A stretch of DNA of 26,151 nt, from contig MU053873.1 in the NCBI GenBank assembly GCA_013239625.1, positions 3,610,524 through 3,636,674 on the forward strand. The letters run 5' to 3'. Of the stretch, positions 14,601-24,435 are shown one piece after another. The stretch comes from Lama guanicoe (taxonomy: Eukaryota). The stretch's first letter is position 1; each line of letters begins with the position of its first letter. A program made the translations under genes and the position numbers. Below the pieces are notes generated by a model, which saw only the letters and a list, made by a program, of their open reading frames with translations, had not been told where the DNA came from and searched no databases.

Positions 14601-15392
14601 CAGTGGCGTAGACACAACTGTAAAACTTTCAGGAGTCAGTTCTGAGCCAGTTGCTAAACACAGCCATTACTAAAAATTAAATGATACACACTTACGATGA
14701 AATGGATCCTATTAAAAGCAAAAGTAGGGAAGGGCCGAACCTTACCACTTCCTAATGACTACATTTGACTAGTACCTATGGTCTTGAGGTCATTGATGTC
14801 TACTGAATCTCGTAGTGAAAACACTAAGCCCCAGTCTGCCCCCCTTATCTGCAGGTTCACTTTCCCTGGTTTCAGTTACCCGCGGTCAACCTCAGTCCAA
14901 AAATATTACATGGAAAGTTCCAGAAATAAACAGTCCGCCTTTCTGAGTGGCGTGATGAAATCTCACACCGTCCCTCTCGGATTCCCAACCGTTGACATCA
15001 TCTGCCCTCGACATCCAACCATCGACACGGTCACGGCTCCAGGGTCCGGGACCACCCAGAGCTCAAGTGGTCCTCCCCCTGACCTGTCATCATCAGAAGG
15101 TCCCTGATAGCCTAACGCTGCGTCACCACGCCTACGCCACCCTCCTCGCTTCATCTCATCACGCGGGCATTTTGTCACCTTGCGTCATCCGACGATGAGG
15201 AGGGGGGAGTGCTGTGTGACAATGACGTGCTGCGCATCTTTCCCCGGCTCTGTGTGCACCAGCAGCTAGTTAGTAGCTTGCAGTCGGCCCTGGTGGGCGT
15301 ATTTACTCCACGGGAATAGACAAATCTACATAAAATAGGGGTTTCTCTCCCAAAGCCTCGGTTAATGTTAAACATTTACCAGCGGGCCACTG
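14601..15392 (+). mobile_element. MER63 (hAT-Blackjack, MER63B-like), split by a nested insertion; halves about 14601-14826 and 15221-15392
   Basis: Termini CAGTGG...CCACTG; left half GAGCCAGTTGCTAAACACAGCCATTACTAAAAATTAAAT; right half GGTGGGCGTATTTACTCCACGGGAAT...TGTTAAACATTTACCAGC. Confidence 0.85.
14832..15222 (+). mobile_element. MER44/Tigger7 (TcMar-Tigger) element lacking its right end
   Basis: CAGTCTGCCCCCTTATCTGCAGG...TTTCAGTTACCCGCGGTCAACC...GGAAAGTTCCAGAAATAAACA; later TCAGAAGGTC...TAGCCTAACGCTGCGTCAC. Confidence 0.85.
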
Positions 15393-16609
15393 TAACTAAC
15401 CCAACACCAACACAGTGTTCCCTCTGGTAAGGAATGACCTCGGTGACTTGTTGCCAGGGACCCCATTCTTTGCGAAATCCAAAAATACAACGTTCCCTGT
15501 GATATGCACCGATCCAGATTTCCTTCCTGAAATTTCTGACTTCCTGACGAGGAAAGCAAGAGGCATTTTGTCAGAGCGAAATAGCTGAGATTTGAAAACG
15601 ATGAAAAGAGGGAGGGAAAGTGAGAGTCATTGGGGGGTCCTCGGGTCACAGAGACGAAAAGGAGCTTGTTTAAACCCCAGGGACCACTCAGGAATCCAGA
15701 CAAGGAAGTGCACGCCCAGCGCCGCCCGGGCAGTGTCCTTCCCGATCACCCCAAATGGGGAGCACCCCGAAAGGCCAGGCAGAGGCGAGTAACGAGGGAG
15801 CACATGTGTGCACGACCGATGGTCACGTGGGCATTAACATTGGTCTTTACTAACGACAGACAAAACCCGCACGTCTTTTAAAGAACAGAAAGAGACGGAA
15901 GCTGGGAGATTTTGCTTTTGATGGAGGGAAAAAGACAGGAAGGAAATGTACTCAAATGCTAAGAGTGGTTTTCTTGGATGTTAGAATCACAGGTGGATTT
16001 TTTTGTTGCTGTTCAGGTTCTCTGCACTCCCCACACATGAAGCGAGTGCACCCCACTGTTTTAGTTGGAGGGCAGGGAGGGGTGGGGAGCTCAACATAAT
16101 TTCACACGAGCGGAGCCCTGTGGAGCAGCCAAGCCTTTGTTCCGCCCTGCACGCCACTCCAGGTCCCTCCCAGAGGCACCGACTCTGGGCCCAGCCTTTG
16201 GTCCCGGCTGGACCCATGAATGGGCCATTGTTCTGTGCGTGACATCATTCTGCTGCCTGCAGGATGAAGGGGAGACCTGGAATGGGGTGCGGCCAGCCCA
16301 AAATAAGGTGGCCCATTCTGCCTGCCTGTCCCCACCGTAGCAGAGGTGCAGTCACTGCACACTGGACTCTGGGGCTGCAATGAAGAACAGCGCCCCAGCT
16401 CCACACCCAAGGGGCGGCCTGAGGCCAGGGTACCTGGCAGGGCTCTGGACGAGCAGTGGCGGGCAGCATCGGCACAGATGGCTGGGGTCACTGCAGCTGG
16501 ACCCATTCCCCTGAAGCCCCTAGGTCTCCAGGGGAAACATGACAACCTGTGCCTGGCACATAGTAGGTGCTCAAGAACTGGTAGTGGTGGTTGTTATTCT
16601 GCTCTTGAT

Positions 16610-20679: not shown

Positions 20680-20840
20680 GAGCACACACCTACATTGTGC
20701 CAGGCATCGGGGTGGGTGCCCGTTTCAATCACCTGATAAGTTCTCCCCATTTGACAGAAGAGGAAACTGAGGCTTGAGAATGGGTCAAGGTCCCTCTGCC
20801 AAGACATGGCCAAGTCTGATTCAAGCCTTCAACTCCAATG
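20680..20840 (-). mobile_element. MIR SINE fragment
   Basis: TGTGCCAGGCA...CCCCATTTGACAGAAGAGGAAACTGAGGCTT. Confidence 0.75.
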
Positions 20841-21349
20841 CCAACTGGTAGGGGCCAAATACTAAATGGGAAGGGACCAGATTTATTTAGCCCAGATTTA
20901 TCTAGCAAGTATTAACATTGTTGGAGGCACTGCATGGCAACAGTGAACACAGGAGACAAAGGCCCTGCGCCACCTAACTTCCTCCATTCATTCATTCATT
21001 CATTCAGCAAGCTGGAGAGCAGGGCAATGAGGCCTGGGGACTCAGGCTAATGCCCAGGGTCACACGGCGGGAGAACTGAACATTACCAACCTCACACCCT
21101 TAACTGAACTGCCAGGGAGGGAACAAGAGTGAAGGAGGAAAGAGACAGAGGGACACACCCATAGAGACAGAGACAGAGGGACAGAAAGAATGAACGAGAG
21201 GCTTTCCCCACCCTGGGCTAAGTCACTCCTCCCAGAGGTTGGGCTGGGGAACTGTCTCATATATTCAGGCCCCGATGATTTGTCCAGAGCCACAAAGCAG
21301 CACAGACCCAGAAGGGAAAGAGATGTCACATTAATGAGACGTGCGTGCA

Positions 21350-21510
21350 CCTGAGTGCTCTGGTTGCTGTGTGACCCTGGGACCATCACTGCACCTCTCA
21401 GCTAGCCGGTGGGGGGGGGCGGGTCTCTGCACCCTGAGGGCCGGTGTGCGCTTTCAGGGACCACGTGGGTGCAGGAGGCTGTCTCAGAGCCTGGTGCACC
21501 CCACAGCTCC
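21350..21510 (+). mobile_element. Diverged MIR fragment
   Basis: TTGCTGTGTGACCCTGGGACCATCACTGCACCTCTC. Confidence 0.55.
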
Positions 21511-21694
21511 ATCCCTAATGACCATCGGGACTCATCACAAGGCTGAATCCAGGGAAGGAGCTGGCTGAGCTCTTTACCCATCACCCACTGTCCTACGAAC
21601 TGGGTCACATAGTCAGGTGGCAGACGTCTCTTTCGTGATAATACCAGGCCCTCTCTGAGTTCATCTTGGTCAGTGGTGTGGGCTTCCCTGAAGT

Positions 21695-21850
21695 TATCAG
21701 GAAGGTCTGGAGCTTGGTTGGAAATAACCCTGAGTGGGGATCAGAGCTGCGGGTTCTGGCCCTGGCTTTGCCGCTTATTTGCTGTGCTACCCTAGGCAGG
21801 TGTCTTTCCCTCTCTGGGCTCAGCGCCACCTCTCTAAATCATCAGTAAGG
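21695..21850 (+). mobile_element. MIR SINE fragment
   Basis: CTGCGGGTTCTGGCCCTGGCTTTGCCGCTTATTTGCTGTGCTACCCTAGGCAGG...CTCTCTGGGCTCAG. Confidence 0.75.
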
Positions 21851-22181
21851 TCCTTGAGGAAAAAAACCTTTTTGCAGATTGGGTTTTTAATTATTAGATG
21901 TCTTTCCACCCTGGCCTCCCAAGCCCCATCAAGCTTGCCAGAGTGAGAGATGGTGGAGTCCCAGGACCCAGACTGAGCACCCCCATCCTGGCCCACTCAC
22001 ACCAAGCCCCAGGCTCATGGGTCAGCGGGCAAACCTGCCCACCACCTCGGGTGATCAGATGAGACCTCGCGATTTGGCTCAACGACAGGCCACGAGAGCC
22101 ACAGCCACACGTGCACATGACGTGGACCCTGGGTCATCCCAGAGGGTTGTGAGGGATGAAGCAGGTGCCAGCTAAGCCTCC

Positions 22182-22191
22182 CTAAAAATAG
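22182..22191. promoter_or_regulatory. Perfect MEF2 consensus site CTAAAAATAG in an intronic motif cluster
   Basis: Exact CTA(A/T)4TAG match, flanked by CAGGTG (22162-22167) and GGGCGG (22191-22196), about 350 bp downstream of the exon donor. Confidence 0.55.
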
Positions 22192-22539
22192 GGCGGACAA
22201 GCATTTGTGTCGGGGCTGAAGTGCCGGCACTTACAGATAAATCCACCGGCAGAGCCAGCCCCGCTCGTGTGCCGGCCCCGTCTGGATAGACACTGAATCC
22301 GGTATAAATCTCCCGACCGCTTCGGGGGAGCGAGCCAGTCCACCGTCGGGGGAATCACCACCACACGCCTCTCCCAGGCACAGGAGCAGGAAGCGGCTGG
22401 GCTCGACTGACAATGATTCTGGAAGAGGACACTTCCCCGGCTGGATCTATGGGACCCCCTCCTCCTCCTCCTCCTCCCTGGGGCGGGGAGGAGTTTTCAC
22501 ACTTGTTTTAATATCTTTAAAAAAACATAATAAGCTTAC

Positions 22540-22824
22540 AAGATCCGGTGGCTCCGAGTCCGGCTGCCTCTTCCTCAGGGAAGAAAATCTCTGCTGGCTG
22601 CGGGCCGAGAAGCGGCGGAAAGATTCCCGGCTCCGGGAAGCAAGGTGTCGGAAGGATGAGGTGCGCTTGAAGGAGGTCCGGCTGGCGGGCTCTCCGCTCG
22701 CCCGCTCGTGGCCCACCGTGGTGGTCACTAAGTTGAGGGCCTCCTGGAAGGACCGCCGGACGGTCCCCATCCACTGGGTCATGTGGCTTTGGGCCACCGT
22801 GAGTTTGTCTCCCAGGTAATCCAT
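22540..22824 (-). CDS. KIAA1671: Coding portion of a first (probably alternative, internal) exon, 95 aa; tentatively the N-terminus of a short KIAA1671 isoform
   Basis: ATG at 22824 (CCCATGG, G at +4); in-frame upstream TGA at 23004-23002; repeat-free, CpG-rich, protein-like sequence; ends CTT|GTAAGC, a phase-0 donor, after which the DNA turns A/T-rich. Gene identity is from recall of vertebrate KIAA1671 short isoforms and is less certain (about 0.55) than the exon itself. Confidence 0.75.
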
Positions 22825-23100
22825 GGGGCCGGGGGGAGAGGGAGGAAGGAGGTGAGATGTCAGGGCCCTCTCCCCTCTTCCTACTGTCCGCTCATGGAAG
22901 TTCTGGGCTCTCTTGAGAGAAAAGCCAGCAGCCCTCTTCAGCCGGACTGAGAGTAAATAGACATTGCTGAGCCAGCAGCTGGCGGCATCCTCGGGTCTCG
23001 CTCAGAACCGGAGGCGGTTCAGGGTCAGGCTGCGAGTCCACCCCCCGGAGTTGTGAGTAAACACGCCAGGAGCTCCAAGATCCAGTTCCCAGCACCCGCA

Positions 23101-23124
23101 GGCTGGCTGGCTGGCTGGCTGGCT
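23101..23124. repeat. (GGCT)6 tetranucleotide repeat
   Basis: Directly visible. Confidence 0.92.
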
Positions 23125-24051
23125 CGGGTGACGAGGAGCTTTGAGGAACTGGGTTGCCTCGCTGGCTCCAGGGCTTGACGGTCCCCAGAGGTGGGGGAAG
23201 GAAGAGGCAGTGGCCCCCAGGCACCCTCAGCCTCACTTTCTCCCAGGTAGGCGGCCCCCCGCAGGCACCCGCTGGAAGGACTGGGTGTCCCTCACTGTCT
23301 CTGCCCCGTGCCTGGTTGCCCGTGGCGGCGGGGACCCCGCTCACCTGACCTGTGCAGGTTTCCAGTCCTCCGGCCGGGGGTTCCAAACCTGTGGGCTGGC
23401 AGGCAGCTAGCTCATTTCCAGAGGCAGCCACCGGGGCCCCAGGTCCCCTGGCTCGGCAGCCCAGGATGACATCAGCCCCCGTTCTCAGCGAGGGGCTTCG
23501 CTGCCCAGGAATGCAGGAGGGGCCTCGGGGAGGTGGCCGCCCAGGGAGCTGACGTCCGCCTCTATTTGTTCTTCCCCCCAAGTCCCAACTCGCTCACCAT
23601 CCCGCGGGGCTGATGGTGGCTGCACGTGCCCGACAGCCTACTCGCCCTGTGCCCTGACCGCGGGCGCACGGGGAGATGCGGCGGCACGTGTGTGCGTGTG
23701 GGCGCATGTGTGCATGTATGTCGGAGATCTGGCAGCCCGGGGAAGGCTGGAACAGTTGGGAAACTGCCTCTAGGGTGACAGGCAGCAAGCGTCTTGGGAC
23801 CTCTGGCCGGTTGTCAGTCTGTCTCCCTCTGGCGGTCCGTTTCTCTGTCAGGTTCCCAGCCTCTCCTTCCTTCCCCTGTCTCCATTTCCACTTGTTCCTC
23901 CCTAAGCGTGCCTCCCTCTCTCTCTCCCTCCCTCTCTCCCTCTGTTCCAGCCTTCTCTCCCTCCCTCCCTGAAAGGCAACACCCAGCCAGGTGAAACAGC
24001 CCTCGAGGCCCCCCAAGGAAGGAACGGGGCCGGGCTGCATTTCAGTACAGG

Positions 24052-24073
24052 CGGGGTTGCCATGGCAACCCCG
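24052..24073. promoter_or_regulatory. RFX X-box GTTGCCATGGCAAC inside a perfect 22-bp palindrome
   Basis: CGGGGTTGCCATGGCAACCCCG is its own reverse complement; core 24056-24069 is the canonical RFX consensus. Confidence 0.8.
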
Positions 24074-24329
24074 GGGCACAGCACCTGCCCCATCCTGGGC
24101 GCGCAGGCTCGGCACAGGGAGCAAGGGGAATGATTCATGGTTTACACTGGGTCACATGAGCGCCTGGGTTTTTAACTCTTGTGGAGCTGGAGTGGTTGGA
24201 ATTTCCCGGGGCGGGGGCGACACAAGACAGCAGCATCTGAGACTGGAGGGGGTGCCTGTGGGGAGGGGTCAGCAGAGGCTGAATCCTGAAGGGAGGCACA
24301 CTTGTTGAAGCAGCATTCTCCTTCTGGCA

Positions 24330-24435
24330 GGGATCCACCCTCTGCGTTACAGATGAGGAAATGCAGACTCAGAGACACAGATTCACTTGCCCAAGGTCAC
24401 ACAGCAAGGGTACCACCAGAGCATGGACGGAGGCT
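24330..24435 (-). mobile_element. MIR SINE fragment
   Basis: TTACAGATGAGGAAATGCAGACTCAGAGA...ACTTGCCCAAGGTCACACAGC. Confidence 0.85.

Follow-up and report, generated by a model that had tools for sequence, protein, structure and literature searches.

The stretch of guanaco (Lama guanicoe) DNA analysed here, hereafter the window, comprises 26,151 nt (C1858:3610524-3636674) and lies within the gene KIAA1671, whose product is actin-associated and all exons of which are on the same strand as a short coding exon flagged by an initial annotation. Through this exon KIAA1671 gains an alternative start, which joins a 95-residue module to the shared 296-residue C-terminal part of the protein. The features of the window are the following:

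22540 to 22824, minus strand: coding portion of the KIAA1671 alternative start exon (95 codons; 99 homologues with 54-100% local identity; the start of human isoform 3)
22534 to 22539, minus strand: phase-0 donor GTAAGC; the intron that starts here measures 42,629 nt and ends at the DQLKQCFS exon (C1858:3590433)
1 to 22539, minus strand: first 22.5 kb of the intron toward the shared C-terminal exons, with no detected exon
22825 to 23004, minus strand: 5' leader with an in-frame stop, three upstream ATG frames and an acceptor-like site
23339 to 23472, minus strand: candidate for an upstream exon, corresponding to the first one in the human model XP_047297513.1, with a CAG/GTGAGC donor at 23344
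23473 to 24300, minus strand: putative internal promoter or regulatory region, GC-rich and repeat-free, with GC boxes and E-boxes (motif matches only)

The reading frame begins with the ATG at 22824 (context ccccggccccATGG) and its last codon ends at 22540. The nearest in-frame upstream stop is the TGA at 23004-23002, 180 nt before the ATG; frame, start codon, stop and phase-0 donor all agree exactly with the initial annotation. The frame is present as one copy in the guanaco genome (2.05 Gb). No interspersed repeats were matched within 20784-24368 in a comparison with 226 kb of the locus, and a genome search with 21900-24300, which skips very common words, returned the region itself and three short matches at a GA-rich simple repeat near 23.9 kb. 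The surroundings had been described as a transposon-free, CpG-rich island of roughly 2.4 kb. The freedom from repeats is borne out, the CpG richness only in part, as the enrichment around the start exon is modest: the observed/expected ratio is 0.51 over 22540-24170 (GC 0.65) and 0.37 over 1-21500, and the usual island cut-off is passed only in patches, at 22040-22863 (0.67) and 23445-23872 (0.63). In the same intron, the stretch 14821-15948 has a CpG ratio of 0.72-0.74 and neither a local repeat match nor an exon; it is possibly an enhancer or an old repeat. Rfam gave no match in the 26,151-nt window.

The exons that identify the gene lie on both sides of the flagged exon. The PF15327 exons are found at C1858:3584244-3580190, 26-30 kb past the window start. 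By tblastn, the exon beginning DQLKQCFS is located at C1858:3590433-3590317, where a phase-0 acceptor follows a pyrimidine tract and ttgcag, as the proposed phase-0 junction had implied; five more exons come after it, and the stop codon is at C1858:3578335. Upstream, the private exons of the long isoform occupy C1858:3687950-3671390, its big exons lying 45-55 kb from the flagged exon, and the last of the private exons likewise joins the DQLK exon. The flagged exon therefore sits within an intron of about 81 kb, between the private exons of the long isoform and those for the shared 296-298 residues. These flanking exons on one strand, together with 92% identity to the start of human isoform 3, confirm the assignment to KIAA1671. 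Identity of the long exons is 96-98% with the Camelus ferus protein; with those of pig and whales it is 71-72%. N-termini of homologues and exons of the long isoform map nowhere in 1-22539, in agreement with the claim that no further exon follows there. Just past the window end, at about C1858:3636675-3640340, the intron contains a run of N of about 3.7 kb, which would hide a small exon.

A search for longer proteins gave 99 matches among 215 candidates. In 88 of the 99 homologues (86 by pattern, 2 by eye, and including one pig model with the module end only) the module continues into the DQLK exon with the predicted junction EPPDL-DQLK. Splicing to a different gene had been named as the outcome that would speak against the gene name; the homologous proteins join the DQLK exon of KIAA1671 instead. 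The remaining 11 are intron read-throughs, and all show V at the donor point (10 VS, 1 VR); the phase-0 GT is therefore conserved. Among 26 homologues found only in Logan, 16 are spliced; their contigs measure 1,372-6,271 nt, a fraction of the 42,629-nt intron in guanaco, suggesting that in many species they derive from spliced RNA. The exon is almost certainly real.

The module was found in none of the 120 long isoforms among the matches listed, consistent with the proposed exchange of the long N-terminus for a short one. Three teleost models (P0154, P0178, P0183) and one pig model (P0100) place the module, or part of it, after long-isoform sequence. P0178 retains intron-like residues ahead of the Met, suggesting that these joined models are probably prediction merges, although genuine internal use in fish is possible.

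The product corresponds to human NP_001373863.1, KIAA1671 isoform 3 (391 aa; UniProt A0A1B0GVJ7; found on 73 contigs including Logan), which has the same 95-residue start, DQLKQCFS junction and PF15327 tail and differs only in species. NP_ accessions are the curated class of RefSeq, and other vertebrate annotations name the form with this start 'isoform X2/X3'. The isoform had been put forward as a candidate and as poorly characterised. It is not a hidden candidate, since the human form is already a RefSeq gene model, and its existence is no discovery; the second part of the description fits the literature covered, which largely excludes subscription journals and in which we found no published study of the 391-aa isoform and no localisation, lipid-binding or phosphorylation data for it. 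The N-terminal module belongs to no family and appears undescribed and uncharacterised.

The module is the best-conserved large part of KIAA1671. It is 84-96% identical in nine mammals, where the two big exons of the long isoform reach 42-68% and 32-64%. For echidna, birds, reptiles and amphibians the identity is 74-87%, and for skate and two teleosts it is 55-64%. The frame is thus kept from mammals to skate and teleosts, as the initial annotation would lead one to expect. In all nine non-therian rows the module is more conserved than exons 2, 3, 4 and 6; the 25-residue last exon alone is comparable.

Searches for relatives outside KIAA1671 gave little. A profile search of 1.84 billion representatives returned 61 matches, of which 60, as far as they were listed, read as KIAA1671-type, including two teleost groups. 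P0180, considered as a further carrier of the module, was rejected as a false match to a repeat protein. Pfam assigned no family to the module, and the PDB sequences contained no solved relative by profile; one PDB match with E 0.68, to a basic Reelin peptide, was set aside as compositional. A link to PIMREG/RCS1 (PF07326) arose as a weak lead from an Atlas feature score of 0.78 and was rejected: hhalign gave a probability of 0.4% against the guanaco PIMREG exon, the module had no Pfam match, and PIMREG was absent from the best 17 frames in the module comparison. An Atlas search excluding PF15327 and PF07326 yielded no usable match, and no orthologous DNA of the start-exon region was found in metagenome contigs.

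The module can be divided into three parts:

22714 to 22824, minus strand: helix 1, residues 1-37; amphipathic stretch of neutral net charge, its hydrophobic residues in an 11-residue register
22672 to 22713, minus strand: variable linker, residues 38-51; low pLDDT, with most insertions at residues 40-54
22567 to 22671, minus strand: helix 2, residues 52-86; Arg/Ser/Phe-rich amphipathic segment

In helix 1 the register is formed by L4/M15/F26/V37, L8/M19/L30 and A11/V22/V33. Its hydrophobic moment over residues 1-37 is 0.39-0.41, a value attained by 5 of 10001 shuffles. The linker shows no amphipathicity (8664 of 10001 shuffles are as high), and no insertions occur before residue 40 in 122 homologue modules. 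Helix 2 takes 11-residue steps through F58/L61, F69/F72 and F80/L83; residues 56-86 have a net charge of +9, and their moment, which peaks at 98 degrees, is 0.395, a level reached by 38 of 10001 shuffles. When hydrophobicity is averaged over the 122 distinct modules, the strongest period is 98-99 degrees in both helices. AlphaFold2, run with a 13-row alignment, predicts helices at residues 2-42 (pLDDT about 70-80) and 51-85, with a mean pLDDT of 64.8 and a pTM of 0.31. Two long helices joined by a loose linker at this pTM argue against a packed fold.

Several residues of the module are almost fixed. R23 and S25 are present in 122 of 122 modules, and Ser, Arg and Gln positions are near-invariant. 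We take S57, S68, S73 and S82 of helix 2 to match PKC, PKA or Aurora patterns; S68 and S73 are kept in 120 of 122 modules, and S57 is Pro in 19. The basic-hydrophobic score (19-residue window and cut-off of 0.6 as in PMC6960411) reaches 0.84 in the guanaco module and exceeds 0.6 in 120 of 122 modules.

KIAA1671 has a further short start within the same intron. A 17-codon exon at C1858:3667220-3667170, on the minus strand and 34 kb upstream of the flagged exon, has a GTGAGT donor and lies in a GC- and CpG-rich patch (observed/expected 0.72 over 500 nt). It starts the human 313-aa form (NP_001373864.1; 'isoform 2' in UniProt) and the mouse 308-aa form (Q8BRV5/NP_766472.1), which are spliced in phase 0 to the same DQLK exon. 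The 17-residue start bears a cysteine and has no sequence likeness to the 95-residue module. It is present in 27 of 32 matches, from mammals, birds and a turtle, and the cysteine is kept in all 27 homologues carrying the exon; guanaco has a second one. Together with the next seven residues this start is amphipathic (65 of 10001 shuffles as high), and it is a candidate palmitoylated anchor.

Both short forms carry the last 296-298 residues of the long, 1806-aa protein. This shared tail includes KIAA1671 1617-1711, whose first residue falls at position 203 of the short form when the 1806-aa gorilla protein serves as reference. Gaeta and Tyska likened 1617-1711 to the CAPZA2-binding region of TNKS1BP1 (2023, PMC10092648), and they cite a report that TNKS1BP1 binds CAPZA2. 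Capping-protein binding by KIAA1671 itself is putative, resting on similarity and one AP-MS match, and the canonical CPI motif, searched as a pattern, has no match in the 391-aa or the 1806-aa form. TNKS1BP1 (TAB182) is a paralogue with the same C-terminal family, PF15327; neither the module nor the 17-codon exon left a trace in 60 kb of the guanaco TNKS1BP1 locus, which contains an N gap. Unlike the short form, the long protein has about 1500 disordered, fast-evolving N-terminal residues in place of the module. It alone contains a weak CPI-like stretch (1013-1137) and the MDM2-binding peptide (600-615, PMC8769072).

Taken with known proteins of similar composition, these properties suggest that the module may well be a phosphorylation-switchable membrane anchor for the shared tail, the likeliest single reading, although we see the arguments for it as evenly balanced. 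The short form would be transcribed from an internal promoter within the island. Helix 1 would lie in the membrane surface with its hydrophobic face inward, and the arginines of helix 2 would bind anionic lipids, with Phe and Leu inserted. PKC- or PKA-type phosphorylation of S57, S68, S73 and S82 could then release helix 2. Such an anchor would place the tail, a putative capping-protein binder, at anionic membranes. Most likely, we infer, the 95-residue and the 17-codon starts are swappable membrane anchors for that tail.

Parallels exist for both functions. Lgl, Numb, Miranda and MARCKS are brought to the plasma membrane by polybasic domains that contain Leu and Phe together with internal kinase sites (PMC4621827, PMC6020718). 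These domains likewise combine an Arg-rich segment containing Phe and Leu with kinase-consensus serines inside it, an analogy of function only. The nearest functional parallel is CARMIL, in which capping-protein motifs are coupled to a membrane-binding domain (PMC13208823). The short form of KIAA1671 differs from all of these in that its basic segment comes from an alternative exon and is preceded by a second, neutral amphipathic helix.

Some observations count against the membrane anchor. The basic-hydrophobic score discriminates poorly: a peak, of 0.87, is also seen in the shared tail in all three human/ape isoforms, and when the four helix 2 serines are scored as acidic, the value for the module falls only to 0.62, still above the cut-off. 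The Pro substitutions at S57 are unfavorable to it, as is the lack of residue 81, which by alignment is missing in one third of the 122 rows (fish sequences), so that the third 11-mer is broken in those rows. In addition, polar residues are nearly invariant across jawed vertebrates, a constraint stronger than lipid binding usually requires and more in keeping with a protein partner.

The main rival to the membrane anchor is accordingly that the module serves to bind proteins or to self-associate, either as a hendecad coiled coil or as a basic helix that binds calmodulin, 14-3-3, F-actin or microtubules, its affinity for lipids being incidental. We regard this as a real possibility, if not the favored one. 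An 11-residue hydrophobic register is compatible with right-handed coiled coils as well as with lipid-surface helices, and basic helices of the MARCKS type bind calmodulin and actin too. The module also has RxxS motifs at 54, 70 and 79, and a warning that basic-hydrophobic sites may bind proteins instead of lipids is given in PMC6960411. However, helix 1 has W, M, F, V, A and G20 together on its hydrophobic face and few charged flanks, which is less typical of a coiled coil; the absence of a solved structure among the profile matches and the resemblance of the sister 17-codon exon to an acylated anchor also speak against this alternative.

Where transcription of the short form begins bears on a further alternative, which is compatible with any mechanism of the module. 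A separate internal promoter somewhere in the island appears the simplest reading, because the long isoforms among the matches listed lack the module. The putative promoter region contains a perfect 14-nt palindrome, GTTGCCATGGCAAC, at 24069-24056, presumably an X-box of the RFX type. The first exon of XP_047297513.1 (339 aa) maps by tblastn to guanaco in two frames, 23472-23437 and 23446-23345. In this copy the donor is intact, the frame is shifted and the ATG at 23472 runs into a stop after 21 codons, so that the exon is probably non-coding in guanaco. In the human model, the equivalent of the 23344 donor joins DQLK directly, omitting the 95-codon exon. As this model has a separate upstream exon, the island probably holds at least two transcription starts, and the 95-codon exon may sometimes be a second exon.

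In that alternative, a non-coding first exon would be spliced from the donor at 23344 to the acceptor-like site in the leader, where a pyrimidine tract and AAG precede an exon that would begin at 22911. The strong CAG/GTGAGC donor, its use in the human model and the broken frame of the upstream exon in guanaco favor such an arrangement. The human donor, however, bypasses the 95-codon exon and AAG is a weaker acceptor, and we consider the arrangement possible but somewhat unlikely; read-through products of several species in Logan have unrelated in-frame leaders and are neutral on the acceptor at 22911. The leader also contains three short out-of-frame ATG frames (22988-22883, minus strand), which start at 22988, 22964 and 22895, all close before the main ATG and, if transcribed, could dampen translation of the main frame.

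Less likely than protein binding is that the Arg/Ser-rich segment or the N-terminal helix acts as an organelle signal, for the nucleus or nucleolus or for mitochondria, taking the tail away from the cortex. The net +9, Arg-rich stretch does end in RKR and the N-terminal helix is amphipathic. Unlike a presequence, though, helix 1 is net neutral with D2, D6 and E28, and targeting signals are seldom so conserved. Leu and Phe in polybasic domains reportedly favor the plasma membrane over nuclear import (PMC4621827). We therefore consider organelle targeting improbable.

That guanaco retains the frame only as an unused, conserved relic is hardly conceivable. Aligning reads from four of four runs gave no records, possibly a filter effect, and 0.45 of the words of 22400-23400 occurred in eight guanaco RNA rows; neither result is taken as evidence on splicing. 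The ATG, frame, donor and acceptor are intact, identity to pig and carnivore proteins is 96%, and spliced products occur across vertebrates.

The best-conserved large exon of KIAA1671 is missing from the 1806-aa form that has been studied so far; this is the form in the only functional paper that we found on KIAA1671 (PMC10092648), whose main text does not contain the word 'isoform'. Should the module prove to be a switchable anchor, the protein would, like CARMIL, connect membrane lipids and kinases with the actin capping protein, and promoter choice would set its site of action. Results obtained for 'KIAA1671' by antibody, knockdown or proteomics would then need to be read isoform by isoform; the mouse Swiss-Prot entry Q8BRV5, for instance, is the 308-aa form. 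More tentatively, residues 1-87 could constitute an undescribed membrane-targeting domain of jawed-vertebrate age, made of two amphipathic helices in an 11-residue register and a kinase switch. KIAA1671 would then be an adaptor for capping protein whose head can be exchanged among three kinds (long disordered, basic-helical and acylated 17-mer), and the short form, rather than the 200-kDa form under study, would carry the most constrained function.

Teleosts have a second copy (P0161, P0165, P0179 and relatives) whose module has diverged: its linker is acidic, and S57 is replaced by Pro. On a tree of the C-terminal part (23 rows; of 25 rows chosen, 3 were left out because a motif was missed, and the single TNKS1BP1 row has a long branch), this divergent group falls within a teleost clade (95/99), a placement that leads us to read it as a teleost duplicate of KIAA1671. 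Its herring member is named tankyrase-1-binding protein and groups with teleost KIAA1671.
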